64,000 nucleotides of DNA from Rhynchobatus australiae (Eukaryota). A model generated the notes under the pieces. The model saw only the letters and a program-made list of their open reading frames with translations, was not told where the DNA came from and did not search any database. How positions within the stretch are numbered: the stretch's first letter is position 1; each line of letters opens with the position of its first letter. This document shows, piece by piece, positions 6,726-56,915 of this stretch. The stretch lies in the NCBI GenBank assembly GCA_034780895.1, contig JAUZTB010000076.1, positions 19,897,717 through 19,961,716 of the forward strand, written 5' to 3'. The position numbers and the translations under genes were made by a program.

Positions 6726-6729
6726 ATAG

Positions 6730-7880: not shown

Positions 7881-7993
7881 TAAGATAAGATTTCTTTACT
7901 AGTCACATGTGCATCGAAACACACACTGAAATGCATATTTTGTATAGAGTGTTCTGGGCGCAGCCCGCAAGTGTCACCATGCTTCCAATGCCA
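7881..7993 (-). mobile_element. SINE 3' tail fragment
   Basis: Clear similarity to 2251-2352. Confidence 0.65.
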
Positions 7994-9178: not shown

Positions 9179-9498
9179 NNNNNNNNNNNNNNNNNNNNNN
9201 NNNNNNNNNNNNNNNNNNNNNNNNNNNNNNNNNNNNNNNNNNNNNNNNNNNNNNNNNNNNNNNNNNNNNNNNNNNNNNNNNNNNNNNNNNNNNNNNNNNN
9301 NNNNNNNNNNNNNNNNNNNNNNNNNNNNNNNNNNNNNNNNNNNNNNNNNNNNNNNNNNNNNNNNNNNNNNNNNNNNNNNNNNNNNNNNNNNNNNNNNNNN
9401 NNNNNNNNNNNNNNNNNNNNNNNNNNNNNNNNNTCTGTAAATGTTATGCACACTCATCTCCAGGTAATAGATTAACCCATTTTATTGTTTATTTGCAG

Positions 9499-9677
9499 CG
9501 CCTGGCAAATTCCAAAGCACATACCTCAAGATTTATCAGTGCCAATCTCCCATGTAACAAGTTTAAAAACCGTCTTGTGAACATCATGCCATATGAATCC
9601 ACTCGAGTCTGCTTGCAACCAATCCGAGGAGTTGAGGGCTCTGATTACATTAATGCCAGCTTCATTGATGGATACAG
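9499..9677 (+). CDS. PTPRF: PTPRF exon, start of D2 (KNRL motif)
   Basis: cag|CGC...TACAG|gta, 179 bp; [33 protein letters not shown]...[11 protein letters not shown]. Confidence 0.96.
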
Positions 9678-27859: not shown

Positions 27860-28800
27860 CTAGTTCTCATCTTGTTGGGTACTTCACACGACATACTAGG
27901 ATAAGGTTACAGCAGTGCTTCTTGGGCAGTTGCTTGAAGGGACCACAAGATGCTGCCAACAGAGAATGACTTGCTTCCTCTACAGTTCTGTGAGTTGTGA
28001 GGTGCTTGATAAGACCAATGTGGTATCTGCAGACTCCACAGGAGGTGCCAATGTGATGTCTGAGAGGAGCTATCTAACCATGCTCCATGAGACCTTCAGC
28101 ATCGATATGTCTGCATTATCATTTCTGTGGCTGCCTTTGGGGCCAGAGTGATGGAAATAACAGCATGGTTTATTCCCATCATGGAACAGGTGATGCAGAC
28201 ATTGCATTCTCTTGGAGACACGAGACTGCAGATGCTGGAATCTGGAGCAACAATCGGCTGGAGAAACTCTGCAGGTCAAACTGCTCAATCTGCTGAGTTC
28301 CTCCAGCAGATTGATGCACTGCATTCTTTTGCTCAGGTGCCTTACGTAGGTCGGGACACTGATGCCATCAGATTTTGCCATCAGGTCTCTTTGACAAGAC
28401 CATGTTGCAAATATTTGCCAAGAAGATAATTCTGTTGGAATTAGTCTTCCCTACCTCCCCTCCCCCCACCCTNNNNNNNNNNNNNNNNNNNNNNNNNNNN
28501 NNNNNNNNNNNNNNNNNNNNNNTAAAGTCACCAAGGAGCATCAGATTGTCTTCCTCTGGGGATGGGTCAGGGATGTTTCCAGATGGGAGTAGAAGTTCTC
28601 CTTAACCTCATCTATAATTTTCAGTGTTGTGATGTATGCACTGATATCCATAGCATGCTGGTCCCATTTGGAGTCAGCCAGAGTGTCATAGGATGTTCAC
28701 TTATCCCACAGGGGAAGGCACTGAGACTCCAGACTCACTCATTCTTGATGTCTGAACCCGCTCCACAAAGGTGGAGTTCATCTTCCAATTGTTTCAAAAA
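27860..28800 (-). mobile_element. Probable RTE-type LINE remnant, interrupted by a short element
   Basis: Minus-strand TYVRHL...CL reminiscent of the RTE TY.RH...CLR motif; heavily decayed. Confidence 0.35.
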
Positions 28801-33479: not shown

Positions 33480-35450
33480 GAGTCTGGAGGCTCCGCCCTC
33501 CCGCGACGTCACCAGGCGGTGGATGTGCAGACTCGCACGCGACCAATGGAAGCCGCAGTCTGCGCGGCGATTGGACGGACCCGAAACCGCAGCGCTCCTG
33601 ATTGGTCCAGAACCCGGTCCGGGAGGTGTGGCTGTTGATTGGCCAAGTGCGAACAGGCCGCATTCCTATTGGTCAGTTGATGACGAGAAGACCAATTGTT
33701 TGAAAACAAAGTGATGTTCGCTATTCCTGTCACCGTTCATGGAGGGCGGTCTGTTTGATTGCTTTAGAACATCATAAAGCTCACGGAGTATTGGGTTTCC
33801 GAGTTCCAAACCGATTCGTCGTCCATTTATGTCGAACAGAGAAAAAGGAACGTAAAATGTAGTCAGATTTCATTACTATGGCTAATAATTGTTACTCGAA
33901 GATAGAGCAGCAACTGAATAGTTAACTAGAATCCAATCCATTTGCTCTGGAATATGCCCATTTAGCAGGAATTGCGCGACTATAAATAACGTTTCGTGCC
34001 GAGGAATGGCTATGATTGGCTGGCAGCCAGCGAGGAGGAGCTGATTGGTCAGATGCTGGTGGACGTGGTGCTAAGTGACGCGTGCTGTTGGTTGGTTTCC
34101 ATTAGGAGTCCTGGTGCTGATTGGCTAACGGAGCTGATTGGCGGACCGTGGAAGAAGGAGCGTTGATTGGCTGGTGGTCGGAAAGTCTGTGCTGATTGGC
34201 TGGTTGGTCGGCTGTGTGGTCTTGTTTGGGGAAAGGGATGGTGGAAAATTCAAGGGGGTTTTGGCAAAAAAAGACGCGAAAGCACTGGGCGCTCCGCAAC
34301 ACTCGGCATCCCCAGACGTAAGTTTGTTCGTTTCATACGTCAAGGAATTTTTTTGCTTGTACTTTAAACCTCAATTCGACTCGATCTTTTCCTTTTTAAA
34401 CCCAAAAAAAACAAATTTCCGGTTGTCGTAACTTGAGGCAACGTAACCTGCTTAACAATAGTATGACTGACAGGCAGATTGACCAATGGGATAGAGGCTC
34501 TGCCCCCCGACATCGGTGAGAGTGTCGGCTGGCCACCCAATCAGGGGCCGGCGCTGCGGATGGGAAGGGGGTGGGAGGATCGCGGCGGGCAGGTTTGCTT
34601 GACGCGAAGTGCCATCGCGGGGGACGGCGGAATCAAAAAAAAAGGAAGCGGGGGGCCGTTGGGCTGCCGCTGGGCGGACAGGGGCCGGGGGGAGAAACCG
34701 CCGGAGATGCCGGGGCCTCGGCTGTGATCCAACAAGGCCCGAGCGGTCGGAGCGGCGCGGTGCGAGGTGACAGCTCCTAACAATAGGGGGAGGGCCCGCG
34801 GACGGGCCTTGTCCTCACCCCCTCCCTCGGCGGGCCCCGTCCGCTCAGCTCCCCCCCCCCCCCCCCCCCCGGGGGGNNNNNNNNNNNNNNNNNNNNNNNN
34901 NNNNNNNNNNNNNNNNNNNNNNNNNNNNNNNNNNNNNNNNNNNNNNNNNNNNNNNNNNNNNNNNNNNNNNNNNNNNCCCCCCCCCCCCCCCCCCGTGCTG
35001 CGGCCACAGAGAGGTTCAAGGAGCAGCCCCCTCCGGGCGTCTTGGCGTGGCTGTCAGAGTCGCGGTGGGTTCCCTCCCCCCACCCCACACACACACGGGA
35101 CGAGGGGGGGGGGTGGGGAAGAAGAGGGCGTGTGATGAAAGTGAAAATGAAAGCAGTGAGGGGAGGACGCCCGTAGCAAACAAAGGGAGAGGCCGAGCCT
35201 ACCCCTGACCGAGCTGGCCGGCCGGCCGGGCGATGACCGCGGGTTACCTTCGGCCCTATGTTGACAGCCGCCGCCACTGTATCCGGTCCCGGACACGGTG
35301 GAGGGATCGGAACTCGCTCCCGGCGCTCTACGTTGCTGCAGAGAGCTTTTATTATTGTTTTTGCCTCCTGTCTGTGCGCAGGTTAATTCCCTACTCTGAC
35401 AGTTTCGCCCACAACCGCCCTACTGGCGGAGTAATAAATACATATTGGCT
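33480..35450. promoter_or_regulatory. CpG island / KDM4A promoter and probable non-coding first exon
   Basis: Sharp rise in GC and CpG versus the rest of the window, immediately upstream of the first coding exon; GC boxes, CRE-like GACGTCA at ~33505, many CCAAT boxes; candidate donor GAG|gtgaca at 34766/34767. Confidence 0.85.
33543..34541. promoter_or_regulatory. Array of >=14 CCAAT/ATTGG (NF-Y type) boxes
   Basis: CCAAT at 33543, 33692, 34483, 34537; ATTGG at 33570, 33601, 33638, 33668, 34015, 34044, 34120, 34137, 34166, 34195, most in full (C/T)GATTGG(C/T) context. Confidence 0.8.
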
Positions 35451-35864: not shown

Positions 35865-36002
35865 ATGGCGTCCGAATCAGGAATGCCCAATCCCAGTTCT
35901 CGGATATTGACTTTTTATCCCACGATGGAAGAATTCAAAAACTTCAGCCGTTACATTGCATATATAGAAACACAAGGTGCCCATCGTGCTGGGCTTGCAA
36001 AG
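35865..36002 (+). CDS. KDM4A: KDM4A first coding exon (exon starts 35846), JmjN
   Basis: AACATGG Kozak, in-frame TGA at 35847; [46 protein letters not shown]|gtaacc, 138 bp. Confidence 0.95.
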
Positions 36003-37419
36003 GTAACCTGTGAAATGTGCATTATTATAGTTGTATCCTTTTTAAGGGAATAATATCCTACATTCCCTAGATTGGATCAAATTAGAGTAATTCTTTGACA
36101 CTGTGGGAACAGATTGGCATATTGCCTTGTGCAAGAAGCAATCAGAAATTCCTTTGCACGCAATTTGTCATTCCAGCAAATATTCTCTCATTTGCTGATG
36201 ACCAACAAAAACAAAATTTGCAGATGTAATATTCTAAACAGGTCTGAATGAAAATGTTTGTGTCCTAAAACTCCATTTCCATTTTTCCCAAAGCATCATC
36301 GATTTTTGCATTCAATCAACTCTGAGAGGTCACTATGATGAGAAAATGTTACTTTGTCAGCAACCCATACATCCATTTCATTGTAGAAATGTGCTGGAGT
36401 TCTCTAATGGGCTCCTATTGTACCATCATGGTTCAATGAATGATAGTATTAGGGGGGAAAAGGCACTCAAGAACTGGCTGGAAGGGAAGTGGGACCCATA
36501 CTGAGTTTACAGGATTTCAATGTGGAATGCTCCTTGCGTGTTTCACTAAAATTGCTCGTATCTGCCCTGGGATTGGGGTTTCAGTGCAACAGTGCAGTGT
36601 AGAAGCACTCTATTCAGGTGCTTGAATACATTCAGCAAGTAAAATTGAGTTTGGGCAAAAGAAGTTCTAAAGTACCATTTGGACATAATTCCCCTTGTAA
36701 ATGAAAGATTCACCAATAATATGCAAGGGTTATCAGACCTAACCACTGTGGATTATGAGTGCCGAAATCTGTGTATGCTCAGAAATACTGGTAGATTAAT
36801 GTATTATCAAAATCACATCCAAATATTTATTATTCTTTTTGAACAGTTAAGATGTTAAGTGTAAACTTCTTTTTCATTTTCAAGACCTACACCACACTGC
36901 ACAAAAGATGTAATAGCACTTAAGGCAGTGCAGAGAAGATTAGAGATTATCAGCGTAAGGTAATGAAGAGGTGTTGTTTTCCTTTGGACCAAAGGAGACT
37001 GAGGAGAAGTTTAATTGAGCTCTATAAAATTAAGTGCTGGACAGTGTAAATGGACATATCTCCATATCTCTCTCTCTATATATATTGATGCAAGGTGATG
37101 AAAGGGAAATTAAGGAAATAAAGTCTCTCTGACTGCTGGGAATCTGGAACTGTCAGAATGGTGGAAGCAGAATTCTCTTTGCACTTCAAAAGTGTGAGCA
37201 CCTGATCCATAACCTGAAGGATTATTAATAGAAAGCTCAGAAGTGGGATTAATGCAAAGTACATTCATGGCCTGCATGGATGTAACAGACTTGTACAATA
37301 TGTTTCTCTGTTAATGTCAGAAACAATGGGAGAGGCAACACAAAACTGCTAAATCTTGAAATTTGCTATTTTGTAGTGATGAACAAGCTAGGTCTTTGAT
37401 CTGGCAAGCCGTACAGTGA

Positions 37420-37565
37420 GCAACACACAAAAAGCTGTCCAGATGAAGGGTATCGACCTGAAACATCGACTGTCGATTTTCCCTTCATAGATGCTGCCTA
37501 ACCTGCTGAGTTCCTCTAACTTTTAGTGTGTTGCTCCAGATTCTAGCAACTGCAGTCTCCTGTGT
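37420..37565 (+). mobile_element. Short Penelope-associated repeat with hammerhead-like motif
   Basis: CAGATGAAGGGTATCGACCTGAAACATCGACTG...GATGCTGCCTAACCTGCTGAGTTCCTC...GTTGCTCCAGATTCTAGCAACTGCAGTCTC; related copies at ~2475, 28215, 41220, 46980, 48880, 55480-56910, 61320. Confidence 0.7.
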
Positions 37566-39615
37566 AAACCATTCAGTAAAATGGTTTTTAGAAGTGTTAC
37601 CATAATGCAATAACTGTTTACAAGCAAAACTACATAAGATTTTAGTTAATCTGCAAAAACTAAGTCAAATATTTCAACTTCCCGTATACTGATGCTCTTG
37701 GTCATTAAGAATACAGTCAAAATGACAACTATTACAATTACTCATTTAAAAAGACAAATTCATATTTCCTGCCATGAGATAAATATTTCATTGTGAGCTT
37801 TTGGTTGTTGCTGTGGGTGTTGAATATCGTAAATTTTCTCTTTCCATTCAGCAGGTGCTGTCATCTGCTGATTGATGAAAGATGACAAAATAATGGGATC
37901 AATCACTTAAATATTGTGGCTTGGTCAGTGGTTGGGTATTTTGTGGCAAATCTTTGGCTCATCTCCCATTAGCAGTTTCACCATCTGAAAGGTAAAAGTC
38001 ATTGTGATGGAGTATTTTCCTCTTCTACATGACTGTTTCTACAACAATACTCAAGTAGAGTATCCCAAGACAAAGCAGCTTGCTGGATTGATGTCTCATC
38101 CTCCACCCTAAAGATTCACTGCCTCTGCCAGTAGTGCAGCAAGGGTGTGGTGTATCTCATCTAAATGATGTTTCTTAGCCTTTGCCGTACAAAGCTGAGA
38201 TCTGTACCACCTCGAAGAATGAGGGCAGCAGTGTATGTGAAAGCCATGACCTGCAGATTCCTTCCAGACAGCAATTCAGTCTGACTTCTTTCTGCTGGAC
38301 AAAATTCTGAAACTTCCAACTCAACAGCACTGTGGTACCTTCACACAGAGTCCAAGAATTCAGGAAAAAGGCCTCTACTATCATCTTGAGGAGTTATGAA
38401 AGGGAAATCAGCGTTGGCCTTATGACATATCTTGTAAATGAATATAAAAATGTGATTTATGATTTATACATTATTCTGTGATCTTGCCTAAGTGGCCTTT
38501 GGAGCACCTGAAAGAAGTTAGTTAGCTTTTTAATGAAGGGAATGTTATACTTAAGCCATGAATTTGCAGAAGGCACTTGAACCAAGGAGTGCTGGATTCT
38601 CATCATAAACTAATGCTAATGATTCTTCACTTCCCCCACCACCTCCTTCCTACAGCTTGGGGATGCTGAGCCACCTGAAGTATCACTATGGTAACATTGG
38701 CAAATATAATAGAGACCACTAGTTTCATACAACTTAACCTGAACAGGCAACTTATTATAGTAGCAAGTTAAAGCTGTTTTTGCTAGGAAATTGTTCCCTT
38801 AAAGGGTATTGCTCAAACTTACCAGATGAGAGATGGGAAGAGTTCAGTAAACATTATTACAAGAAAAGTAGTATTTTGCTATTGACATCTGGCTTCCCTT
38901 GACAGAGTTCTTAACCTTTATGGCTTGCATGACAAATCTCAGAGGCCTCTGGCTAATGAAGCTTATGATGTTCAAATCCCACCTGCAACAATTAAACATG
39001 TCAGCTTCGAAGAAAGTTGAGAGCAATTGCGATATTAAAATTTGAAGGATCCAAATTAGTGCATTTTAGTCCTTGTAGCATTGTGAAGAGTGACTATTTA
39101 TGAGTTTAGAAGAATGCATAAAGAATATTGGGGAAAATTCAATTGAATTCATATTAACATTTATTGATAAAGATAATGTAAATGTGCCTGTGTTCAGACT
39201 GTTGGCAATTTAAAAGTTAACTATTTATTACACTACACTTTGACTTTACCAAAGTGAAGACATTAAAAAGATCAACTTTCTTATAGATGTACTTCAGTGA
39301 AATTGGGTTTGCAGTCCCATATTGACTTCTATTGTACAAATCATAGCTCTCTTGCTGAACTTTCAACAAGATGTACCTCCATTTATTTGGATATACACAG
39401 TAATGACCTTAAACATTTGGGTAAAGTTGGCGACTACGTCTTGTAGGTCTTCAGTAAAACCACAAGAAATTTGCTAGTATATTACGATGCCATTGACTCC
39501 TGGCCCACTTCTTAAAGAGATTGTTGCGTGAAACCTGGATGTACTTTAATGTTTCAAACACATTTGGAAGCTAAGAGTTATGAATTTACTTGACTAATTA
39601 TTCATATTCCAACAG

Positions 39616-39791
39616 GTTGTCCCTCCAAAAGAATGGAAGCCTTGTAAGAGTTATGATGACATTGACGATCTGGTGATACCAGCCCCTATTCAACAGGTGG
39701 TAACGGGCCAGTCAGGCCTCTTCACACAATACAATATTCAAAAGAAGCCAATCACTGTACGAGAATTTCGAAAAATAGCTAACAGCGACAA
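39616..39791 (+). CDS. KDM4A: KDM4A exon 3
   Basis: cag|GTT...AA|gtaaga, 176 bp; [58 protein letters not shown]. Confidence 0.95.
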
Positions 39792-40699
39792 GTAAGAGAA
39801 TCTCTCTGCATCATCTTTTAGTACAGTGAACTGTTTATAAAACTGGAAACCAGAAATATGATCCAAAAGGTTTACAGTGTTTTTGAAGTTTGTTTCAGTA
39901 TAAATCATATTTGTTCCCAGTATTTTTTTGCTGTTGATTAGTTGGNNNNNNNNNNNNNNNNNNNNNNNNNNNNNNNNNNNNNNNNNNNNNNNNNNNNNNN
40001 NNNNNNNNNNNNNNNNNNNNNNNNNNNNNNNNNNNNNNNNNNNNNNNNNNNNNNNNNNNNNNNNNNNNNNNNNNNNNNNNNNNNNNNNNNNNNNNNNNNN
40101 NNNNNNNNNNNNNNNNNNNNNNNNNNNNNNNNNNNNNNNNNNNNNNNNNNNNNNNNNNNNNNNNNNNNNNNNNNNNNNNNNNNNNNNNNNNNNNNNNNNN
40201 NNNNNNNNNNNNNNNNNNNNNNNNNNNNNNNNNNNNNNNNNNNNNNNNNNNNNNNNNNNNNNNNNNNNNNNNNNNNNNNNNNNNNNNNNNNNNNNNNNNN
40301 NNNNNNNNNNNNNNNNNNNNNNNNNNNNNNNNNNNNNNNNNNNNNNNNNNNNNNNNNNNNNNNNNNNNNNNNNNNNNNNNNNNNNNNNNNNNNNNNNNNN
40401 NNNNNNNNNNNNNNNNNNNNNNNNNNNNNNNNNNNNNNNNNNNNNNNNNNNNNNNNNNNNNNNNNNNNNNNNNNNNNNNNNNNNNNNNNNNNNNNNNNNN
40501 NNNNNNNNNNNNNNNNNNNNNNNNNNNNNNNNNNNNNNNNNNNNNNNNNNNNNNNNNNNNNNNNNNNNNNNNNNNNNNNNNNNNNNNNNNNNNNNNNNNN
40601 NNNNNNNNNNNNNNNNNNNNNNNNNNNNNNNNNNNNNNNNNNNNNNNNNNNNNNNNNNNNNNNNNNNNNNNNNNNNNNNNNNNNNNNNNNNNNNNNNNN

Positions 40700-40925
40700 A
40701 ATGTGCTGGGGGCAGCCTGCAAGTATCACCACTCTTCTGGCGCCAACCTAGCATGCCCACAGCTCCTAACCTGTATGTCTTGGTATTGGTCTTTGGAATG
40801 TGGGAGGAAACTGGAGCGCCCGGAGGAAACCCAGGCAGACACAGGGAGAACTTACAAACTCCTTACAGACAGCGGCGGGAATTGAACCCAGGTCACTGGC
40901 GCTGTAATAGCATTATGCTAACCGC
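40700..40925 (-). mobile_element. tRNA-derived V-SINE, relatively young
   Basis: V-core GGAGGAAACTGGAGCGCCCGGAGGAAACCCA.GCAG and B-box GGAATTGAACCC (reverse GGGTTCAATTCC). Confidence 0.8.
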
Positions 40926-41712
40926 TTGAAAACAGAATAGTTATGGAAGAGAAAATATGTGATCCCCAATTCATGGAGTTCCTGAATTTGCTACTATAAA
41001 CCTTGCGTGTTGAAGGCAAGGCAACTTCCTGCATCTGTCCCTTCCCACTGAATTCTTCCAGCATCTGCAGTCACTTATCACCAATTGAATTAAATCCTGA
41101 GTGTCAAAGCAGTGGATTTAACACTACCTGAATGCAGTGAAGATGCTTTCACAATCTGGGATAATTTGATCCATGATGTTGCTTTATCATTACATGGTCA
41201 AATTAACCCATGGAAAGAGGAGCAAAGTCAGTGTTTTGGGTCAAAGACCCTTTTGTTCCAGCATGAAGTATCATCTCTGTTACTATTTCCATGATGTTCC
41301 CTGACCAACTGTTTCCAGCATTTTCAGTGTTAATTTCAGACTCCCAGCCATGCATTTCTGATCTTCAAATTAACCTATTTTTTTGTGTCTGGTTCAGTGG
41401 CCCTAAATTGCTTCATTATCCTATCTGAAGCTTGCAATTGGCCAGTTGGGCTTTTTAGGATGTTGATTTTGTCTTTTTATAATGGGAGGGGGATTTTATA
41501 ATGATTTTTAATATCAGAATCAAAGTTCAAAATGTGAGAGCAGAAAGAATTTGTCTAGACCTACCAGCACAGCAAAGTTTTATAAACAAATATTAAGATT
41601 GTGCTGTTGCCATTCAGCAATCTAGCTGGCGAAGTATTACTTGGTTCATTAAAAAAAAGAATTGAATTTCTGGTTAGAATTGTTCCCCTAATACACATTT
41701 ACCTTTATTCAG

Positions 41713-41827
41713 ATACTGCACCCCTCGATATACAGACTTCGATGATCTGGAGCGCAAGTATTGGAAAAATCTCACATTCAACCCACCGATCTATGGTGCA
41801 GATGTCAATGGTACATTGTACGATGAG
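41713..41827 (+). CDS. KDM4A: KDM4A exon 4
   Basis: cag|A TAC...GAG|gtgagg, 115 bp; [38 protein letters not shown]. Confidence 0.95.
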
Positions 41828-42922
41828 GTGAGGAGTTGATGAATCAGATTTTTGATTACATTGTGGTTCCTGGGGCCTTTTGGTTTTTGCCTTGTTCAAA
41901 GTGTCATTTTGGGCTACATGCTGAGCATTACAATGTCTGTTAGGTACTTGGAGCTGATGAGAACATCCAGGGCCTGATGAAATGTACCCTCAGGCTGTTA
42001 AGAGAAGCAATGAAGGAAATAGCTGGGATTCTGACAATCAATAGGCTAAGAGTAATAGTTGAATGTTTCAGTGATTGGAGGCTGTTGGCTTGTGGTTCTG
42101 AAAGGCTCTTCATATTATATGCTGATTAATGCAATTTATTTTTAGGAACCATAATTAGAAAGTTTGAAGATGATACAAGAATTGGTTGTTTGAGAGAGAG
42201 AAAACTGCAGCATGTAGGGAGATGCCTATGTTCAGGTCATGTGGTCAGAAAAGTGACAAATGTATTTGTTATGAAATAACTAAGATGATGCTTTTGTTTT
42301 TGAATATTGGGCCAGATCAAGCTGGACCTGGCTGTCACCTTGTATTCAGCTGTTTTTTGGTATGCCCGCAATTGTAGGTGTATGGATTTTGTGGGCACAC
42401 AGTTTATACTGTCGAATGAGGTTTGCAGCAATTGTGGGCAAAAACTATAGCTCTCCCCAAGCTGCCCTGATGGCTTTCTGATTGCCTTTGCTGTCAGGAG
42501 TCTTTTCCAATTTTTCTAAATATCTTTGTTTAGAAATGACTGAAATTTAAATTTACTACATTAAAATGCATTCAACTTAAGTGAATCAACTTTGAAAGAA
42601 ACAAGGCAACAAACCACTTAGATTAGTGAAGGCTGGCAACCCCATTGTAATGAATGGATTTATTTGAAGTGTCAGTTGTTGCTGTGGTATAAATGAGGGG
42701 TAGGATACAAAATGCAGTTGTCCCCTTGGCTCAGTATATTAAGGAACACCTGAACAGAGTGCAGAGGTGTGTTTATCTGACCTCCAGTGTATTCCATACT
42801 TCTATGTTGTGGACTACAGGAGCACAATAATCTGCTCTTTGCAGGGTAGTCTTTAGAATTTTTTCAACCCATTCCTTTCTTTAATTTGAGGAGTGATGCA
42901 GGTTCAAATTGACAGTGCCAGT

Positions 42923-43140
42923 CCTACAATCCATCCCAATTGCTGAATGCTTTTTGTGACCTCATGGAAAGGGATTGAGATTTTAGGAAGTTAAATCAAA
43001 CTTTATCTGCATGTAAATTGGGAATGGGTAAATACTCCTCGCACTCTCTACCTTGTCCTGATTCAGCTCTCAATGCCCTGTTTTCTTCAAGAAGACTGCA
43101 AGTATTTTGAAGCCACGTATAAGCATTTTCAAATACAAGC
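42923..43140 (+). repeat. Direct repeat copy 1 (copy 2 at 44888-45090)
   Basis: CCTACAATCCATCC...GGAAAGGGATTG.GATTTT.GGAAGTTAAATCAAA...TTCAAGAAGAC...TATAAGCATT present in both. Confidence 0.85.
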
Positions 43141-43830
43141 TTTAGACACGTGTGCTGAACTTTTTAATCTTATTTCCTATGCTGGTTGAGACTTGAAGTA
43201 CTATATATGTTGTACTTCTGAGGTTTATTTTTCATAATCTCTGGTGAGAGCAATGGTTTTTTTCTCATTGTGGAAAAATGCCCTTCAAGGTAAGGGATAA
43301 AGGAAGTTGGCTTCTGGATTTTCAATTTGGTAATTGAGATGATATCAGATAATTTGGAGTGGTATTTTGTGTACGTCATTAGTCTGTGGTTTAGTTCTGG
43401 CTAATTAGTATGGTTAATTGACCAGTTGTTGGTCTCTCCCTCCTCGAATGTGAGTGTGTCAGGCCCAGGCCTCCTTATTGAGATCAGTACATGCTGATTA
43501 AAGAATTACAAATATAATGCAGACAAATAATGTTGTGGAGTTTGAGGATTATCATGAGTAAATGATTTTGACATAGTTACTGTGTAACAGTACTTCATGT
43601 TTTTCATGTTGCATCTAATTTTCCAATCCATGTTGTTAGGGTGGGGAATAGAAAAGGATGGTATAATCTTGTGTAGATCTGTCTAGGGAGTCCTGTATTC
43701 TCTCAGGATTCCTATGTTAGTGTGCACCTTTTAGTTTAATTTGTCTGCATTTGAAACAGTTATAACTAGTGTATTTTCCAAGTTGATTTTGTTAAACAAT
43801 ATTTTGCTTTTATGATTTCCTTTTGTTTAG

Positions 43831-43851
43831 GGTGTGAATGAATGGAATATT
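43831..43851 (+). CDS. KDM4A: KDM4A exon 5, visible 5' part only (remainder in gap 43852-44399)
   Basis: Polypyrimidine tract + tag|GGT GTG AAT GAA TGG AAT ATT = GVNEWNI, matching KDM4 xVDEWNI. Confidence 0.85.
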
Positions 43852-44399
43852 NNNNNNNNNNNNNNNNNNNNNNNNNNNNNNNNNNNNNNNNNNNNNNNNN
43901 NNNNNNNNNNNNNNNNNNNNNNNNNNNNNNNNNNNNNNNNNNNNNNNNNNNNNNNNNNNNNNNNNNNNNNNNNNNNNNNNNNNNNNNNNNNNNNNNNNNN
44001 NNNNNNNNNNNNNNNNNNNNNNNNNNNNNNNNNNNNNNNNNNNNNNNNNNNNNNNNNNNNNNNNNNNNNNNNNNNNNNNNNNNNNNNNNNNNNNNNNNNN
44101 NNNNNNNNNNNNNNNNNNNNNNNNNNNNNNNNNNNNNNNNNNNNNNNNNNNNNNNNNNNNNNNNNNNNNNNNNNNNNNNNNNNNNNNNNNNNNNNNNNNN
44201 NNNNNNNNNNNNNNNNNNNNNNNNNNNNNNNNNNNNNNNNNNNNNNNNNNNNNNNNNNNNNNNNNNNNNNNNNNNNNNNNNNNNNNNNNNNNNNNNNNNN
44301 NNNNNNNNNNNNNNNNNNNNNNNNNNNNNNNNNNNNNNNNNNNNNNNNNNNNNNNNNNNNNNNNNNNNNNNNNNNNNNNNNNNNNNNNNNNNNNNNNNN

Positions 44400-44452
44400 T
44401 GTATATATGTGTGTGTGTGTGTTTGTGTGTGTATATATATATATATATATAT
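44400..44452. repeat. Compound (GT)n(AT)n microsatellite at gap edge
   Basis: Directly visible. Confidence 0.95.
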
Positions 44453-44483
44453 AGCAAATCTAATAATTTCTTTATTCTTGTAG

Positions 44484-44533
44484 GTACACTGTTCCTCCAG
44501 AACATGGCAAGCGACTGGAACGCCTGGCTAAAG
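44484..44533 (+). CDS. KDM4A: KDM4A exon 6, JmjC
   Basis: tag|G TAC...AAA G|gtataa, 50 bp; YTVPPEHGKRLERLAK. Confidence 0.94.
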
Positions 44534-44887
44534 GTATAAATTGTTGACTTTATTTTTCATTCTCTAAATTTCTGCTTTGAACAAAAAAAACAACTAACTT
44601 GAGTCAAGGAGATCCAATTGTAAGTAGGTTGGTGCAAGATACAAATATTACAGGTTTTGTTAAATTTCTTTCAAAGGAATTATCTGCTTCCTTGCTGTAA
44701 CAGATAGCAGTAAGATAACATTCTTATTCTTATTACTTTGCCACGCTGAAATGATCACCAGCAGCTCCGTTGAATGGATTAGTGGTGGTGATTTGAATTG
44801 AGATCTAATGAAGCAGGTTGACTCTTAAGAAACCACTATTTTAATTATTACACTGGAATGGAATTGTCTCTTTCACTTGTCTTTTTA

Positions 44888-45090
44888 CCTACAATCCATC
44901 CATCCCAACTGCTTTTTATGACCTTGTGGAAAGGGATTGGGATTTTGGGAAGTTAAATCAAATTTTACCTACGTATAAAATGGAAATGAGTTTTTAAAAA
45001 AACTCCTTTACACTCCCTACTTTGTTCTCATCCTAATTCCCTTCAAGAAGACCATAAATCAACTAATATAAGCATTATCAAACACAACCC
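44888..45090 (+). repeat. Direct repeat copy 2
   Basis: Colinear with 42923-43140. Confidence 0.85.
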
Positions 45091-46860
45091 TGCCTTTTGG
45101 AGTTCTGATATTTCTGGGTGAGTATCTCTGGTGGCAAAAGTGATGGGGACAAAGTGGAGTGGTTGCAGTATGAGTCAGTACTTTTTTTACTCTTCTGAAG
45201 GTGGTGTTGTAGTTACAGTGCGCAGCCTATTTGTCAACTAATTAAGGCTTTAAGACTAAGGGAGTCCTGAGTGTCTTGTTCCTTTTTAAGGGAGTAGGCT
45301 TTGGAAAAATGCAAGTTGCATTTGCACAATATCTAATTGTCCTGGGAGTAGACACTGGGCAATTCTCAATAGAAAAAAGGCTATTGCTTAAAATATTGAA
45401 TGTGCAATTTTCCTGAAAGAGACCAATGAGAACTCATTCTCCAGTTTACTTTGAAGTATTTTGGAAAACAAAGCAATTCACTGATCAGTACAGACTCTCC
45501 ACTTCAGCTCCTAAATCTGAAAAAATATATTCTGCAAAGTGCATTTGATTGGCAGCCCCATTCAACAGCAGCATAGAAACTTAGTGTTTGAAATGCTCTT
45601 GTATTATAAATTACTGTTTAAAGCAATAAAAATTCTTAATTCTGATATTGTGTAATTTAAGACCTTATATACTGAATATGTTAAAAAAATAAAGAGAAAT
45701 ATCAGTAATTTGCAGGTATTTTGTTTCCATTCAGAACTACCTCATTTACATGCTCTCTTTGGTCATTCATGATTAGCTGTTTCCTTAAGTCAGATGTATT
45801 TTTTTTGATAGCAAAGATTCAGGTTTTGTACCTCCCATTTCTTGTCACAAACCAAGGTAGTAGGAAATATGATTGATAAGAATGTTACGTAATATGAAAG
45901 ACATCAAGATTTTAATGGTGTGAGACATTAATTTTACATGCTCATGAGTCATTTTTAAGTCTTGTGTAGCAGAACGCTTACATAATTACATGAAAGAAAT
46001 TAGCCAGCCGTAGTTAAGTGTGCATTTAAATCTTTGCACACTTTGAAATTGTTTGGATTCTCCATGAATTTCACTTTACTGTCCAATGCCATTGTGGAAA
46101 CATTGTCACTGCAAGGCCAGAGGATTTCAGAAAACTTGTTTGAGACTACCACCTTGAATAGAATGCATAATAAAGGAAACATGGCCAATATCATTCATGT
46201 CCCATGGATAGTTATGTTTTTAAAGGTGATGTGATGTATCTCAACCAAATAGATGGCCAAAGTATAGTTGCAACTTAAAAGTAAATACTTTTTACTTTTG
46301 CCAATGCAACATTGAATATCCAAGACTATCAAGATAGCACATGACATTAACATAATCAAACTTGCAATTTAAGTTTACTTTGTGTGTTATTATAAACACT
46401 ATTGGCTGGAGGGTTGAAATTGAGATTGCAAGTAATGGGTTTGGATTCATTTCTGTGCTTGCTGCCTTTTTCATTGCAGTGATTAGGGATTTAGCTATCA
46501 GAGCATGTTTATTGATACTTTTTAAATGTTAATTGGACACACTTGCAACATCTTTTTATTTAAATACAATTTATTCCTGAAGTAACCAGAAAATGAACAA
46601 TAACTATAAATACTATGTTAAACACAGTATTACTGCTTGAAGGTTTATTCTACCTCTTCCTGGGAACGATAGAATTACATTAGTGAAAACCAATGTCAGG
46701 AAATGCTTGTTTTGCATGACTAATCAGTTAATGCTTTCATTGCAGCTAGCCTAAGAAATACTGGAGAGATGAAGTCATTGAGCAAAATTTGCTTTGCTTG
46801 GTTATTGTATGATGGTTTGTAAAATGAATCATTGAAAAATTCCATTTTTGTTTTTAATAG

Positions 46861-46964
46861 GTTTTTTCCCAGGAAGTGCTCAAAGCTGTGAAGCTTTTCT
46901 ACGCCATAAGATGACTCTGATATCCCCTTCTATACTCAAGAAGTACGGAATTCCATTTGACAGG
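46861..46964 (+). CDS. KDM4A: KDM4A exon 7, JmjC
   Basis: tag|GT...AGG|gtacgt, 104 bp; [34 protein letters not shown]. Confidence 0.95.
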
Positions 46965-48121
46965 GTACGTACGTGAAATTGAAAATCAAAGAAACTGCAG
47001 ATGATAGAAATCTAAAACAAAGCCAGAGACATGCTGAGGAGCAAGAGATAGCTGTGGAAGTGAAAGCCCTGACCTGAAATGTTAACTCTGTTTCTCTTCG
47101 TGCAGATGCAGTCCAACCTGCAGAGTGTTTCAAGCACTTTGTTTTTGTTTTGCAGACATGATGTTGGGTAATTGTAAACTATGTTGCAACAATAAAAAAA
47201 CAATAAATTTGATTTTTTTGATTAGGAAATTAATTCTTTTGGTGCAGCAAAATCCTCAAAATACCCAACATACTTTTGTACACAAGGGCATTTGAGAAGT
47301 TGCAAAACTGAGTTTAGCCAACAGAATAGCAGAACTGAACAGATTCATTAGAATTGCTTTCATACATGTGATCATCTCATTCCAGAGATTGGTTAGTGAA
47401 ACAATTGCAGAATAATTGTTCCAAATATTTTATTTTTTTTAAAAAATTCTCGGCTGCCAACTATTGTACCAATTGCTGTATTAATAAAATATCTTTAAAT
47501 AAGTTGGTTATCTGTTTATGAACAAAAAATTCATGAAGGAACTTTGTTTGTATTTTTAAGCTTGCTATGTTGCTGATGCAGTTCCTTTGACTCATTAAAT
47601 CTCTTTTGCCTGAAGTGATGATTCCATTTTGTGCTTTATCCATCAGCAGAGTAATGAAATGTATGTGATCACTTGTTTCTAAGTAGAATATATCAGGATA
47701 TTTAACATTTCTACTTGTATTGACAACACCATTTGGCAGTGTCCAAATTTTATACTGTCTAGTTCTTGTGCATTCTTCAAGTTAGAAACAAGCTCTGGAC
47801 TATAAACTAAATTTAAGATCTGTTATTCTTTTGCTGGTATTGTTAATAGTAATTGTTCACTCTTATTACTATAGACAGGTGAAACTTCAATCATTTTGGT
47901 GCTTTTCAGTAGTGAGGGAGGGTGATGCTGGTGAAGAGGGAAGGAAAAACTATTGACGGAAAAACTGTTTGTTGCCAGCATTTTGTCCACTTTATCCAAT
48001 TGTTCTGTTTAATTATTTTGCTTTAGATTTTTTTCATAATTGGAATTCATCTGGTTACTGACAGTAATGAATTAATTTCAGGAAAATATTTTTGTTTCAA
48101 CTAGTCTTCATTAATTCACAG

Positions 48122-48259
48122 GTGACCCAGGAGGCAGGGGATTTCATGATCACCTTCCCCTATGGTTATCATGCAGGCTTTAATCATGGGTTTAACTGTG
48201 CTGAATCGACAAACTTTGCATCACTTCGATGGATAGAGTATGGGAAGCATGCTGTCCTG
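48122..48259 (+). CDS. KDM4A: KDM4A exon 8, JmjC with distal Fe-binding His
   Basis: cag|GTG...CTG|gtatgt, 138 bp; [46 protein letters not shown]. Confidence 0.96.
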
Positions 48260-49271
48260 GTATGTACTTGTTTTTTTTGTTTCTGGAGGCCAATAATAAA
48301 ATATAATATTTCTGTCAGAGCTTTTGCGTGGGTTAGATCTCAAAGACAAATTAAAATATCATAGTGCAACTGTTAACAAGGTTTGAGTAACTATTAAAGT
48401 GCCCAGTCTTCCACAATTTTTAATATCTTTGGAGTATGAAAGTGGTCATTTATCTGGAATAGAGAATCGCTAAGCATTTCCTTTGGAAAGAATATCTACT
48501 NNNNNNNNNNNNNNNNNNNNNNNNNNNNNNNNNNNNNNNNNNNNNNNNNNNNNNNNNNNNNNNNNNNNNNNNNNNNNNNNNNNNNNNNNNNNNNNNNNNN
48601 CTTTGGAAAGAATATCTACTGTAGTGTATGGAAAAACTAACTTTCACTGTTACTGCTCCTGGATAATCCCACTTTGAAATACAATAGTGAAGTTTAACTG
48701 CCAAATTGCCTATGTCTTTAAAACTACTTCAGTAGTTGTAACTATCAAGTTCTTAAACTTTGGCTTTTTATGATCTTTTTGTGAAGGCATAAGATCAAAT
48801 AGTGTGACCAGCTTATGTAGGTGTAAGTGTACTATTTATCTTATCTCTAAGAAAACAAGAGGTAAAAAAATCCATACGTCAACTGCTGTTGGAAATCTGA
48901 AATAAAAACAATAACTTGAAACACCTGAATCATGCAGCATCTCTGCAAAGAGAAATGGGTAATAGTTTAGAAACCCTTTGTGTAAACTCAGCAAGTATTT
49001 GGTGGAACAATATCAATGAGCCCTTGTACAGCTTGAAAAGGAAAACCAATTCATATTGGGTTCAATGACTAAAACTCCCTGGGAACAAAATGACAAAGTT
49101 TTATTTTCAATTCACTTAACTGCTGTGTCAAACCTTAAATTTTTAAAAATGAGCTTGTAATACAAAAGACTTCAGCTCTTAATTTTTCAATTTGAAGTAA
49201 AATTTAGATGGTGCTGGACAATTTTTGTAAGGAAAGATTTCTAATTGTCATTTTTTTTTTCCCTCCACCAG

Positions 49272-49543
49272 TGCTCATGCAGGAAGGATATGGTAAAAAT
49301 TTCGATGGATGTTTTTGTGCGCAAGTTTCAGCCTGAACGATACAAGTTGTGGAAATTGGGTAAAGATACAACTTTTGTTGACCACACACAAGCCACTCGA
49401 GAAGCAGTTGAATTTTATGAGGAATTAAAGACTGCATCCGTGAAGAGTTTGGAAGACCAGGATGCTGATGCAGCTGAAATAGAAATGAATAAAGCTGAGA
49501 AAAAAGTGTGCACTGCACAAAGAGACATTGCTGAAACCAAAAG
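49272..49543 (+). CDS. KDM4A: KDM4A exon 9
   Basis: cag|TGC...AG|gtaaaa, 272 bp; [32 protein letters not shown]... Confidence 0.93.
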
Positions 49544-50347
49544 GTAAAATTTCTTAAATATTGAACCAATTAAATCTATTATTCTGAGCAGCAATGTCAT
49601 TTACTGTCTCTTTAAATGCATTTAGTGCATTGGGAAGTAGCTGAAGAGAAAAATTAAATCGGAGTTCCCCTGAAGCATAGGCTAAATAAATTGTTATCCC
49701 CACAAATTTCAAAATATTTACCATATTGTGCCTATGGTGCTTCTAAGGAACTGGTAGGATTTAAGATCTCTCTACAGGAATAATACCTCATCTGGTGCAA
49801 TCTTGAAATTATTTCAACACTGCAATTTTAAACAACAGAAAAAATTGTGGGATGGTATGGCAAATGAGAAAAGACACTTTCAGATTGCTGAATACATGGA
49901 AATTTGTCCACATTTTATGTATTAATAATCTTATTTTCTTTTATATAGTAGCCATCCAGGAATAAGTCATCCATAGCAATAACTATATTCTTAAAATGCT
50001 CATTCAAGTTGTATTGTTTTTGAAGGATTGAGAGAATGTTGCCAAGTCTATTATTTAATTCTGCTTGCCATTATTAGTGCAGATTTGGTAATAACCATAA
50101 AATGTGATATCAGAATTTTTGGGCTTTGCTTCCTTCTGGGTAAAATCCCTGATTCAAACAGTTAGAAAATCCCTTTATTCATCTCAATGGAAAGAGCAGG
50201 TAACACACAAATGGGTCAAAAAGTATGGGAAGGGAAAAAAGTGAGGAAATGTTACTTAGTGGAGAGCTGCTTTTTGCTTTCATTCATGAGAGAGATTTTC
50301 AGAGTGGCTATTTTTTTTGCATAATAAGCACAATTTTTTGTTGCCAG

Positions 50348-50553
50348 CCCAATAAAACATCGAATAGGAACAAAGAGACACAAGGTTTGTCTGGAGTTGC
50401 CACAGGAGATGAACGAAAATGCTACAGTCCTCAAAGAGGGTGATGACATTAATCCTCTTCCACAAAGTGACTGTGAAGAGTCTAAAGGAAAGCTGCAAAA
50501 GGAAGAGGGGTGCTGTAAATTCAAAGCTGGTGATGCCAGTTCTAATGTTCCAG
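50348..50553 (+). CDS. KDM4A: KDM4A exon 10
   Basis: cag|C CCA...CCA G|gtaaga, 206 bp; PIKHRIGTKRHKVCLELPQE resembles the KDM4A-specific KHRIGTKRHRVCLEIPQE; phases consistent. Confidence 0.9.
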
Positions 50554-51604
50554 GTAAGATGTTCATAGTGTCCTTTCCTGTTGCTGTGTTGTTTTTTTAA
50601 GAAAAAATCAATTTTCATGTTTTCTCTCCTGAATTGCGGGGCAGGGATAGGATAATTGGNNNNNNNNNNTTCCCCCATGGTACAGGTATCAAAAACGAAG
50701 GCATAAGTTTAAGGTGAGAGAAAGGAATGTTAAAGGGAATTGAGAGAAAAGGTTTTTTTTAATGCAATGGTTGATCTCTGAAACTCTGCCAAAAGAGGTG
50801 TTGGAGTCAGATACAATAACTGTTTAAGGGACACTTCAGTAGAAGGGCAAAAAGGTCAGCATGAGCAGTGTGGGCTGAATGGCCTATTTCTGTCTTGTAC
50901 AACCATCTCTATAACTGACGCTCCAGTGCTGGGCGGAAGTGAGTTGGGAGTTAAAATGGGAAGAAATGAGTGAGTGCAAGACCCCAACTCTGTAGAAATG
51001 TATTGTTTGCTTTTTTTTAAGTGATTCTTAATCCTTTTAAATGGGAGCTTAATTTTAACTTTGTACGGGCTTTCGAACAGTGGCGGTTTTGACTCCCAAG
51101 TGGCTTTTTTAATGCTCTTTGTAGTTCAGATTCCCCATTTCCTTGGGAACAAATTTGACCTTTCCTCCTTATTGTTTGTTTATTTATTTCACCCTCCCCA
51201 AGTCTCAATGGTTTTCCTGCTCCCCATTTCTGCTCTGCTAAATTTTCTTACAAGCCCTTCGTTAGCAAGGTTAAAGTGTTCTTCCCACTAATGTTCCTTG
51301 ACAATTGGCCAAGAAGGTGTGGATTTGGCCTTGTACTGAGTAAAAAGTGGAAGAAAAGTCCATCCTCATCCTCCCTGTAAATATCGTGATTTGTGATTCA
51401 CTCCTTGTCCTGGCATGATCATACTTACTGATATAGTTATTTCTATTGATTTTTAACACATTTTGCCATTTTCAATTCCATTATCTTTAAAATCCATGGT
51501 TTGCTTTTTTTTGGTATCACATTTGTAGAACCTGTGCACTCCGTTATTTGTACATTTTCTGCACCTTTATCACGTTTTGACTAGTAATTTTATTCTCTTG
51601 ACAG

Positions 51605-51906
51605 AATCTGCCACAATCAGGGTTGAAAATGCTCCACAAGAAGAGAAGCTGAGACTGAAGCCAACTATGTCCACCTCAGCAGACACTGCTGTCACTGTAT
51701 TAAACTTCTCAGTGGCGACTCATTCCCAAAATACTTCCACTTCATCCGTGAAATCCTCGGACTCCAGCTCCTCCGATTCTGAGACTACAAGCACTCTGAG
51801 TTCAAGTCAAGAGAGTGCTGCTGAAGACTCTGATAATAGTCCAGATTGGGGTGAACCGGTTAAAACAAATGTTGGAACTAGCCTCAATGAACAGGACCTT
51901 GCGGAG
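51605..51906 (+). CDS. KDM4A: KDM4A exon 11, Ser-rich linker
   Basis: cag|AA...GAG|gtattc, 302 bp open frame with SSDSET and SLNEQDLAE; phase 1 in, phase 0 out. Confidence 0.85.
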
Positions 51907-53869
51907 GTATTCACTGATATAGTAATTTCATACCTCTTGAATGCACTTCACCTTTGCTCTAAATCTTGAGCAATTAACCTAGAATTGTGCACATCAAGCT
52001 GGCAGACTATTTTGTGAGCAAAGGTTTTTGGGGAAGCAAATTATTCAAGAATACATTTAGTAAATCAGAGAAGATGGGTTGAACTAATTGGTGTAAACAG
52101 TTATTCTGCGGATCTATTTAAAAAGTTAATCAATTTTAAATAGGTGTTCGTGTCTTTGTGAATGTTATTCTAGGTGACAGTGGATTCTTCAAATGTTTTG
52201 AGGTTATTACAACATAAATCCATTCAACCTTTTATTCCTCTTTCAAAGGGTTACCTCCTAATCCTTTCAGATATCATGAATATATTTATGACAAAAGTTA
52301 GAATTTAGACTGAAAATAGGGAGACTAGCAAAATGGGTGGTCTGTAGTTTTTCAGATTGGCAAAAAGTAGACAGTCATTTCCTACAGGGGTCAATTTGGG
52401 GACACTTGTGATATTTGCATAAACTAATTGCACAACTGAGTCCAGATAATAGAAGTGAGGTGGGATGTCTGCTGCAAGTGGCTTCAAAGCAGTACAGCAG
52501 CAGAATGGGAGGTAAAAATATCAACTAAAATAGTAAATTAGATCAGTGCCATTATTTAAAAAGCAATTCATTTATCTCTGAAGGGTTGTTTTAAAAATTA
52601 GTTTAGTTGATCTAGGATGTACAATGGCTGTGCAGTTCTCAATATTGTGTGCATGCTTCTGGTCTTGTATGAAAATTCATTTTCCGAGGCAGTGTGTGGA
52701 AAGCTTTAACTAGGAAGATACTAGAACTGGGAAGCAACCTTCTTTTGGGATGGATTATAACTGCATGAACTCCTTTTGGAAGAAAAATTGATATGGAAGC
52801 ATGATAAAGGGCTTCAAAATTTAGAGTATGAGAATAATTTGGAAAAGATGATTACATTATAGACATCAGAGATGCAAAAATACTCACTAATCCAATATGG
52901 AATTCAGGAGAAACCTTTTTCATGTTGATTTATTGGAGTGGAGCTATTAAGTAGTACTTGCTTGTTGCCTCAACATTTTAAGGGGCGCTAGGTAAGCACA
53001 TGAGGGAGAGATTGGATGACAAGATGAGGGACGAGGCTTCTGTGAAGTGCAAAATATCAGCTTGGATATGCTGCGCTGAATGCTTTTTGTGCTTTGTCCC
53101 TTTCTCTCTACCTTCTTAAATTTTGTGTAATAATTAGCACGATGTATTCCATGGTATTCTTTCTGAAAGATGCCAGTGCATCTCTATGTGAGCTGTCATA
53201 ATTCATTTACATTTGCAGAGTAAAATTTGAATACCAAGATTATTTGCAGATTGTGCCCCCATTCCCTTCTCCTTCCTCCCATTTTTATCCCCCTCATGGT
53301 TCCATCCACCCACCACCCGTACATCTTACCCACCAGATCCCCTCCCCTATCTGATTCTGGTTCCATCTGCCCTTCACCCCCCCCACTGATGGTTTCCATT
53401 ATCACCTTCCTTATTTATCAGATTTGGCACTTGGTAGCCTTTGTGTTCCTGCTTATCTGCCTCCTTGCTGTCTCCACCTTCACCCTCCCCCCTACCTGGC
53501 TCCTTCTGCCTTTTTTGTCTGCCTCTATTTATTATCAACCTGCCATTGTCTTTCAATTACACCCCTCCTCCTCCCCTACTGGGCTCAATCTGCCCCTCAC
53601 CTGTCCTTAGTCCATCTTTCACCTCTGGACCCTGACTCACCACTCCTCCTCCTCCCCATTTTTAGTCCAGCTCAACCTACTGTGTTCCTCCAGCAGAATA
53701 TTTGTTGCTTAGATTTAATTTGTTTCCCTGTTATCTTGCTCTGTCACATTAGTATAACCTTTGATTTTGCTTTTTAAAGGTATATCTATTGATAGGTCTC
53801 ATTGGCCTACTATTGATGCCACTGGTGGAATGTGTTTACTACTAGATTGTAAAGAGGAAGACACCTTCT

Positions 53870-55479: not shown

Positions 55480-56915
55480 ATAAATTTAGCATTACAGATT
55501 GATAACCTTTCATCAGAACTAGAAGTTGCAAAATAAGGAGACACAAGTGACTGCAGCTGCTGGAATCTGGAGCAACTAACAATATGTTGGCGTAACTCAG
55601 CGGGACGAGCAGCATCTGTGGGGGCAGGGATGGCAGAAGAAGGAATCGTCAATGCTTTGGGTCAAAGCCTTGCATCAGGACTGAGGGGAGATGGCCACTA
55701 TAAAGCAGAGAATGGAAGTGGCGAGACAAGATCACACTGGGCTCTTGTTAACAGTTCCTTTTCCTCTCCAGCTGCTTGATCTGCTGAGTTCCTCCAGCAG
55801 ATTGTTGCTGGAAAATAAGCATGTTTTAAATTGCTTCATGGAGGAAGGATGTAGTGAACAAAGAGAATATCTGTGATAGGTGGAGACTGAGAGTGTGATG
55901 TAAATAGTGGTGCAGGCTAAGAGACGGTGATCAAAGGTTGTTACTTGCAGATCTATTTGGATGAGGTACAAGTAGGGGACACAAGGAAAAGTGATGTTGG
56001 AACTGTAAATTATAAGGGACTGCAGTTGCCAGAAACCTGAAATCGAAACAGAATGGTGGGAATACCAGCAGGTTAGGCCAGCATCTGTGGAGAGAAATGG
56101 ATTTAATGTTGTAGGTTGACCTTTTGTCTGATTAGCCAGCTCTGATACAACAAACTGGAAAAATTGGTTACCTGAAATTACTGTATTTCCATGAGTTCTG
56201 AGTATCAGGAGATCAAATGACATTCATCAAGCTTCGTTGTAATGGTGTGAAATGCTAATGACGTATGTGAGTGGGATACAGAATTGAAGTGAGGGGCAAC
56301 TGGACGTTCTAGTTCATCCATGCAGACTGAAAGGAAGAGCATCCTTTTCCTATTTAAGGAACGATGTCTCACGTTGCAACAATGTAACATGGAATTTAGC
56401 ACTTTCAAATAACCTGCTTTGCTAGTTTGTAATAGAATTGGTCAGTTCTGTTGAAAGATCAACCTTAACATTAACTCAAATTTTCTCTCTTCAGAGATGC
56501 TGTGTGATCTGAGTATTTCTATAGTTTTTATTTCTGGCAACTGCAGTCTTTTGCACCTTGTAGTTCTGTTTTTTTTTCCCACCCCTTCCTTCTCATTCAT
56601 TTCATTCATCTACATCTCTCTGTTGCACTCAGATCATCTAAGGTTAACAGGCTGCTTTCACCCATCGTCATCATTTGCATCTGCCTTTCTTGCTCTCGTC
56701 CTCTTCAGAGATTTGCTTTGTTTTCTTCATCACCATACCCCCTTCCCACAACTTTAAAGCATGTTTGTTCTCTAACTTTGTGTAATTCAGATGAAAGGCA
56801 ACCAATCTGAAATGTGAACTTTGTTTCTCTCTATCTATATATGCTGCTTGACTTGCTGAACCTTTCCAGCTTTTATCATTTTCAGATTTCCAATATCTGC
56901 AGTTTTTATTTTGCT
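55480..56915. mobile_element. Cluster of Penelope-associated short repeats plus PLE GIY-YIG remnant (~56165-56400, minus)
   Basis: At least five CTGCAG(A)TGCTGGAA/GCATCTGTGG units in both orientations; 56165-56350 aligns by eye to 28930-29130. Confidence 0.7.

Follow-up and report, generated by a model that had tools for sequence, protein, structure and literature searches.

The locus and its genes

The window, as we call the whole stretch of 64,000 nt that was analysed, carries exons of a receptor-type protein tyrosine phosphatase (3363-9696, plus strand) followed by those of a KDM4-type demethylase (35865-52000, plus strand), a gene order reminiscent of PTPRF-KDM4A synteny elsewhere among vertebrates. 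A GC-rich stretch upstream of the latter gene, at 34013-34199, holds four spaced CTGATTGG (reverse CCAAT) boxes and is likely its promoter. Inside the gene there is an 82-nt direct repeat (42948-43029 and 44910-44991), whose two units are 84% alike and 1,962 nt apart.

The repeat copy at the centre of this study lies in sense orientation in an intron of the KDM4-type gene, between the JmjN exon and the following coding exon, as expected from its earlier description as intronic. Its motif string at 37437-37470 reads as it was first given, and the earlier note was right to recognise in it the minimal type I hammerhead known from Penelope-like elements (PLEs). The parts of this pLTR stump and the other family members of the window are listed in Table 1.

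Besides U4A, the focal hammerhead has three lesions: CpG decay of the ACGT palindrome (G>A at 37465, as proposed before), CpG decay at 11.1 and a change in the loop. It has no intact partner and is predicted to be inactive. A target-site duplication of at least 5 nt was looked for at the focal copy and none was found. Both junctions of the stump are also present in contigs of a second organism, in which the flanks are ~3% diverged; the insertion is therefore older than the split between the two.

Table 1. Members of the repeat family and exons of the KDM4-type gene, by position in the window
Feature	Position	Strand	Remarks
JmjN exon, KDM4-type demethylase, upstream of the focal copy	35865-36000 (bounds approximate)	+	JmjN E 9.9e-13
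Next coding exon, KDM4-type gene	near 39616-39790		
JmjC exon, KDM4-type gene	48071-48361		
Inverted 18-nt piece of the same element's 3' end, no tail	37419-37436	-	abuts 5' end of focal stump
Focal pLTR stump, subfamily S1, A4 type	37437-37565	+	129 nt; profile E 1.4e-30; body end near 37535
Minimal type I hammerhead of focal copy	37437-37472	+	numbered by the min-HHR consensus (PMC4209133)
Focal stem I, 5' arm	37437-37439	+	
Focal C3-A9 box	37440-37446	+	C3 = 37440; U4A, inherited
Focal extra A after A9	37447	+	
Focal stem II, 4 bp	37448-37459	+	G.U at 10.1-11.1 through CpG decay
Focal GAAA box	37460-37463	+	
Focal stem III palindrome	broken at 37465	+	G>A, CpG decay
Focal predicted cut site	after 37467	+	
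Focal stem I, 3' arm	37468-37472	+	
Focal 30-nt tail	37536-37565	+	
Body-only fragment	2472-2529	+	profile
Short head-to-head pair without hammerhead	28284-28216 and 28281-28314	- and +	profile
Head-to-head pair	41252-41207 and 41258-41348	- and +	profile; minus-strand member keeps stem II, 5' box missing
S3 fragment without 5' box	47064-47155	+	profile
Decayed fragment	48880-48978	-	profile
Body-only fragment	53668-53713	+	profile
Hammerhead-like 38-nt stub, S3-like, no downstream body, weak	55483-55520	-	BLAST E 0.003; missed by profile
pLTR copy, subfamily S2, A9C core inherited, with tail	55540-55683	-	partner fragment 55747-55806 (+)
Decayed S3-type copy	56013-56130	-	profile; absent from earlier list
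Decayed S3 copy	56443-56553	+	profile; absent from earlier list
Decayed copy, old subfamily S3	56786-56906	+	profile
Head-to-head pair, S3, both decayed	61424-61354 and 61417-61504	- and +	profile

Family size and state of the copies

To count the family, a profile was built from 54 genomic copies, iterated four times and searched against the window and 79 stretches of 10 kb. The sample amounts to 656,766 called bases at round coordinates on large contigs and is not strictly random. In the window the profile gives 16 fragments, where about eight copies had been counted before. Six of the seven sites listed in the earlier note were recovered; the seventh, the stub at 55483-55520 (minus strand), is only a weak BLAST match (77.5% identity to 56783-56822 over 40 nt) and is probably real but weak. 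No intact core was found among the window copies, in agreement with the earlier statement that each of them is core-mutated, and an Rfam scan of the window returned four matches at E<=10, none of them a hammerhead.

The whole sample contains 177 family fragments. The reversed sequence gave no profile match in any of the four rounds and the reversed patterns gave none for every genome-wide pattern, so that a chance origin of the matches can be excluded. Scaled from the 657-kb sample, the genome is estimated to hold ~500,000 fragments (430,000-580,000), which bears out the very high copy number suggested before, as well as ~250,000 copies that span the hammerhead (90 sampled) and ~8,000 (1,700-25,000) in which core and stems are intact (3 sampled). 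Core and stems were kept in only 3 of the 81 scorable sampled copies, all three belonging to subfamily S4.

Inverted arrangements are common in the family: 48 of the 177 fragments stand in head-to-head pairs, compared with one tail-to-tail pair, and an inverted partner lies upstream of 69/151 truncated copies but of only 9/131 UTR-bearing ones. The copies have two 3' ends, 30-35 nt apart, and the tail between them was seen in 139 of 252. Rarely does a fragment have a same-strand neighbour closer than 200 nt (8 among 177 fragments), which speaks against tandem retrozymes, though a few tandem pairs exist elsewhere in the genome. In just one case, the head-to-tail pair L311, the second unit begins precisely where the cut is predicted.

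Subfamilies and inherited core variants

Mixture clustering of 141 fragments resolved four subfamilies, S1 to S4, with S1 split into a U4 and an A4 type (S1-T and S1-A). Divergence from the majority sequence is ~20% in S3, the old subfamily, 16% in S2, 14% in S1 and 10% in S4. The majority core is canonical (CUGANGA, GAAA and NUH) in S1-T, S3 and S4, carries U4A in S1-A and carries A9C in S2, which also lacks the fourth stem I pair. The proposal of one consensus that is an intact ribozyme thus stands in part: the S1-T, S3 and S4 masters fit the published consensus, but there are at least five subfamilies and two of them have a non-canonical core. S4, the youngest (L345-L359), has A or G at N7, a GUU triplet and a 3-bp stem I, and is the best candidate for a working ribozyme. 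Exact matches numbered 444 for S1-T and 598 for S4.

The earlier note had counted both the CAGAUGA core of the focal copy and the CUGAUGC core at 55648-55683 (minus strand) among the core mutations of decayed copies. Exact genome counts of one 31-nt motif gave 444 copies with U4, 145 with A4, 58 with C4 and 9 with G4, while the A6 transversions on the U4 background were found in 6 and 6 exact copies. The A4 copies also differ outside the ribozyme, TT at +34/+35 being present in 0/30 of them compared with 19/30 U4 copies. On a tree of 41 copies with UTR and without N, built with position 4 masked, the A4 label required 7 changes against a shuffled mean of 13.2, with none of 500 shuffles as low. 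The A4 copies are thus clustered, but their lineage also holds 10 U4 copies, which falls short of a single clade. For S2, position 9 is C in 24/24 sampled copies and in 62/68 exact matches. The estimated numbers per genome are ~30,000 copies with U4A (11 sampled) and ~70,000 with A9C (24 sampled). U4A and A9C are inherited subfamily states and not single-copy decay. A mutation hot spot at position 4 was considered and rejected because A4 is linked to sites outside the ribozyme. A6 changes are ~4 times as frequent in the A4 context (45 against 145) as in the U4 context (39 against 444).

The masters keep stems I and II, the extra base after A9 and the palindromic stem III. Across the copies, 635 of 805 stem cells are paired, compared with 20-43% when the partners are slid, although the structure was read from the same sequences, which favours the fit. 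Between subfamilies, C-G is replaced by U-A at 2.1-1.1 and G-C by G.U or A-U at 10.1-11.1, two events only, and the inner stem II pairs are invariant; the other differences between masters fall at positions where hammerheads tolerate change (N7, loop II and H17). The kept stems and palindrome point to selection on the hammerhead fold during transposition; the two paired changes fit this but are weak as covariation. Minimum-energy folds of monomers keep stems I and II and often pair the core, and two-strand folds are extended duplexes instead of the active dimer; both are uninformative on activity.

Once inserted, the core has decayed about as fast as the body downstream of it in four clusters out of five (S1, 9.2 vs 9.8%; S2, 10.9 vs 11.1%; S4, 5.8 vs 6.7%); in one S3 cluster it is a little better kept (12.5 vs 18.2%, p 0.024, one of five tests). 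This decay bears on the idea that copies in introns were domesticated as ribozymes and cut or regulate the pre-mRNA of their host gene, here the KDM4-type one. The sense orientation of the focal copy and its presence in a relative with ~3% divergence are compatible with such a role, as are the conserved intronic hammerheads described in amniotes (PMC6155905). However, the focal palindrome is broken, its closing pair is G.U and a partner is missing, no window copy and only three sampled copies are intact, and the core decays like adjacent DNA. Domestication is therefore largely refuted and in our view highly improbable.

Link to a coding Penelope-like element

Upstream, longer copies run into a pyrimidine-rich UTR of ~340 nt and then into a reading frame whose linker is C-X4-CxxC and whose end is GIY-YIG-like and bears cysteines. 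Conversely, in 11 of 30 loci fetched with the GIY-YIG protein, a hammerhead in matching orientation follows 66-350 nt downstream, with no inverted case; many of the remaining loci end or enter N soon after the frame. GIY-YIG-like sequence was found upstream of the A4 copies L062, L063 and L089 and of the C9 copy L247, and reverse transcriptase (RT) motifs lie further upstream, including YIDD in L123. The family had been proposed to be non-autonomous; copies with U4, A4 and C9 are each continuous with the PLE UTR and the GIY-YIG frame.

The nearest protein matches of the element's frame are those of rays and a shark. Among the longer homologs, Pfam recognised GIY-YIG in 4/5 and RVT_1 in 1/5, only one match being above the curated cut-off and most just under it, and the Atlas look-alikes of the element protein are GIY-YIG clusters at 0.97. 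Pfam gave no match for the window's own PLE fragments or for the L043 and L123 frames. A CX2-5CxxC linker and a CCHH motif in the C-terminal GIY-YIG, as defined by Craig et al. (2021; PMC8557442), are present in the L043 frame and in P0001, P0003 and P0004. In domain order and zinc motifs the element matches EN+ PLEs of Neptune/Nematis type, Nematis sharing these motifs. RT plus a GIY-YIG at the C terminus upstream of the pLTR, 5' truncation, an inverted partner and a tail of 30-40 nt are features of EN+ PLEs, and all are present here.

Among the loci examined there was no full-length element between two pLTRs, and the assembly has many gaps at these repeats. Nor was a 5' pLTR-ORF junction seen: past the tail, 0/278 copies run on into element sequence that they share. 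One pair on the same strand, 2.2 kb apart, was considered as a full-length element and rejected, its members being separated by N without an ORF. At L127, L234 and L039, solo stumps are followed downstream, within a few hundred bases, by PLE coding fragments, which gives the impression that new copies insert next to old ones.

The pLTR contains several strong splice-acceptor-like sites (a pyrimidine run followed by CAG), the one at 37480-37492 of the window being at the same site in all subfamilies. Three homologs (P0003, P0006 and P0008) are annotated as host-gene isoforms with PLE sequence, and PLE copies may be exonised in host genes.

5' ends of the copies and search for a cleavage footprint

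The 5' boundaries were determined at 70 loci retrieved with a downstream pattern that ignores the hammerhead; 63 were readable and seven were dropped for N. Twenty of the 63 ends fall within 13 nt, at -10 to +2 of C3 (p 1.5e-6 against a uniform spread). In a comparison drawn from 294 copies, a G at -5, one base ahead of the stem I arm, was present in 20/66 truncated copies but in only 2/101 of those continuing into the UTR (p 1.3e-7); S1-T, S1-A, S2 and S4 all include such cases. A genome-wide pattern, which overlaps the 294-copy set, returned 49 cases with a base other than C at -5, namely 27 G, 12 A and 10 T; the T cases carry UTR-context letters in 3/3 fetched. In some copies the G at -5 is explicable by microhomology to an inverted partner, as in L374.

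When an RNA cap is reverse transcribed, it leaves an untemplated G behind at a sharp 5' end, as is familiar from L1 and cDNA work. For this reason the extra G is likely a copied cap and the templates would stem from capped RNA. The start of the stem I arm also fits the initiator consensus. A spliced upstream exon was considered as another source of the G, the end of the UTR being acceptor-like, and is less likely, since the copies have no sequence in common upstream of -6.

At the predicted cut site (+26 to +28), 4 of the 63 ends were found. A pattern that enriches for starts near this site gave 161 matches, and 30 fetched loci contained no clear cut-site class: by eye, one or two begin at the cut site, stem II is missing from five, and the remainder show other deletions, duplications and upstream starts. 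Cleaved templates may thus form a minor class. The five loci without stem II (L305, L307, L308, L320 and L321) and further cases have lost it precisely between two GAA words, perhaps through a template jump across the hairpin.

Our results suggest, with a probability of about 80%, that the repeats are 5'-truncated and inverted pLTR ends of Neptune-type PLEs, in which the hammerhead likely stands at the start of the RNA and the templates are likely uncut. Because the repeats are ends of coding elements, a separate non-autonomous family is unnecessary. One could instead regard the 100-130-nt stumps as a self-propagating, SINE-like family with an internal promoter that is copied in trans by the PLE protein. 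About a third of the copies are indeed sharp at both ends (20/63), an internal promoter is described for D. virilis Penelope (PMC2377424), and non-autonomous PLE derivatives are known (bioRxiv 2026.07.22.740005). However, copies with the same subfamily letters also run on into UTR and ORF, the 5' ends form a ladder that reaches the ORF, and the extra G in four subfamilies is the mark of a mechanism and not of one master, which makes a SINE-like family improbable.

Proposed mechanism and role of cleavage

Under the preferred reading of truncated PLE ends, the genomic junctions suggest an Inr-like transcription start at the A in the arm of stem I, so that the RNA would begin with the hammerhead. 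The RT of the element would prime at internal positions in the RNA, ~70 or 100 nt downstream from the cut. On reaching the capped 5' end it would leave a stump of 100-130 nt with a cap-derived G, on read-through RNA it would run up into UTR and ORF and stop at random, and a second priming event would give the inverted piece.

Since copies spanning the cut site stem from uncut RNA and two variant cores were amplified, cleavage in these elements is likely slow, conditional (on a dimer or protein) or dispensable, which would have let core variants amplify. Taken as a natural knockout, the U4A and A9C subfamilies would have a disabled core and would have been amplified from capped, uncut RNA, the ribozyme being a dispensable switch at the 5' end; we put this forward as a tentative possibility. 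If it is true, cutting would remove the cap, and the hammerhead would be no tool for making unit-length or circular templates.

U4A and A9C could also be working core variants that cut with the help of a dimer or of PLE protein, cutting being required at a step that leaves no DNA trace, for example mRNA decapping or trimming. Stem II, the GAAA box, palindrome and NUH triplet are all retained by the variant-core masters; residual activity is described for natural core variants, including U4C and U3-A8 (PMC3088659), and the anole hammerhead cuts only with protein (PMC11167929). On the other hand, neither U4 nor A9 differs in any of the 56 representatives in Figure S3 of Cervera and De la Pena, whose search descriptor demanded them, S2 has lost a stem I pair, and the excess of A6 changes on the A4 background may reflect relaxed constraint or age. 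We consider working variants rather unlikely. If the variants do cut, the hammerhead core would be widened, and searches by descriptor would miss tens of thousands of motifs per genome.

Comparison with known systems

As a family the repeats are ordinary, Penelope pLTRs with minimal hammerheads having been published for fishes. Hammerheads have been reviewed (PMC6155905; PMC6765202), and Cervera and De la Pena (2014; PMC4209133) describe the minimal form in Neptune, Poseidon and Xena elements of fishes, with thousands of solo motifs. With those pLTRs the ray family shares the type I layout, the extra base between A9 and 10.1, G10.1-C11.1, a short stem I and a palindromic 15.2-16.2 without loop III, as well as the prevalence of solo motifs from truncated PLEs and the inverted pairs. 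S1-T and S4 fit the >80% consensus of that study, whose Acropora Neptune example likewise has a 4-bp stem II. Its 56 representatives include no cartilaginous fish and neither U4A nor A9C, both of which its descriptor would exclude. Intact motifs number 4,000-9,000 in coelacanth and frog according to the same source, compared with ~8,000 here, next to the ~250,000 hammerhead-spanning copies. Literature searches on U4A or CUGAUGC hammerheads, whose coverage did not extend to Lunse, Weinberg and Breaker (2017), and on shark or elasmobranch Penelope hammerheads returned nothing on point.

The non-LTR retrozymes (bioRxiv 10.64898/2026.07.22.740005), described from 31 vertebrates including one chondrichthyan, resemble the ray family in their type I hammerhead, their origin from PLE pLTRs and their non-coding nature. 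Whereas they form tandem arrays with at least two complete hammerheads, the ray copies are dispersed solos or head-to-head pairs.

Like the Neptune EN+ PLEs of Craig et al. (2021; PMC8557442), the ray element has an RT followed by a C-terminal GIY-YIG, the CX2-5CxxC linker and CCHH, together with 5' truncation, inverted partner and tail; the clade is assigned here by motifs that Nematis shares. The same authors call the role of the hammerhead for Penelope elements unclear, and the ray family provides a handle on it, as it offers matched natural masters (canonical, U4A, A9C and N7A), each amplified in vivo and ~40 nt long. From the extra-G footprint one can also predict at which base transcription starts.

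The closest mechanistic parallel is PAc, a Poseidon element of Anolis carolinensis (Frangieh et al., 2024; PMC11167929), whose mechanism was shown in vitro, whereas ours is read from genomic junctions. Unlike the ray element, PAc belongs to a clade without the zinc-finger linker; its ORF begins in stem II. In PAc, and by our reading in the ray family, two RT starts define a tail of 30-40 nt; these internal starts lie ~85-92 nt downstream of the cut site in PAc and ~70 and 100 nt downstream here. For PAc, uncut RNA is the main substrate in vitro, hammerhead mutants still insert and cutting occurs only with protein. No reads were reported at the PAc cut site, and likewise the 5' ends of the ray family form no clear pile-up there.
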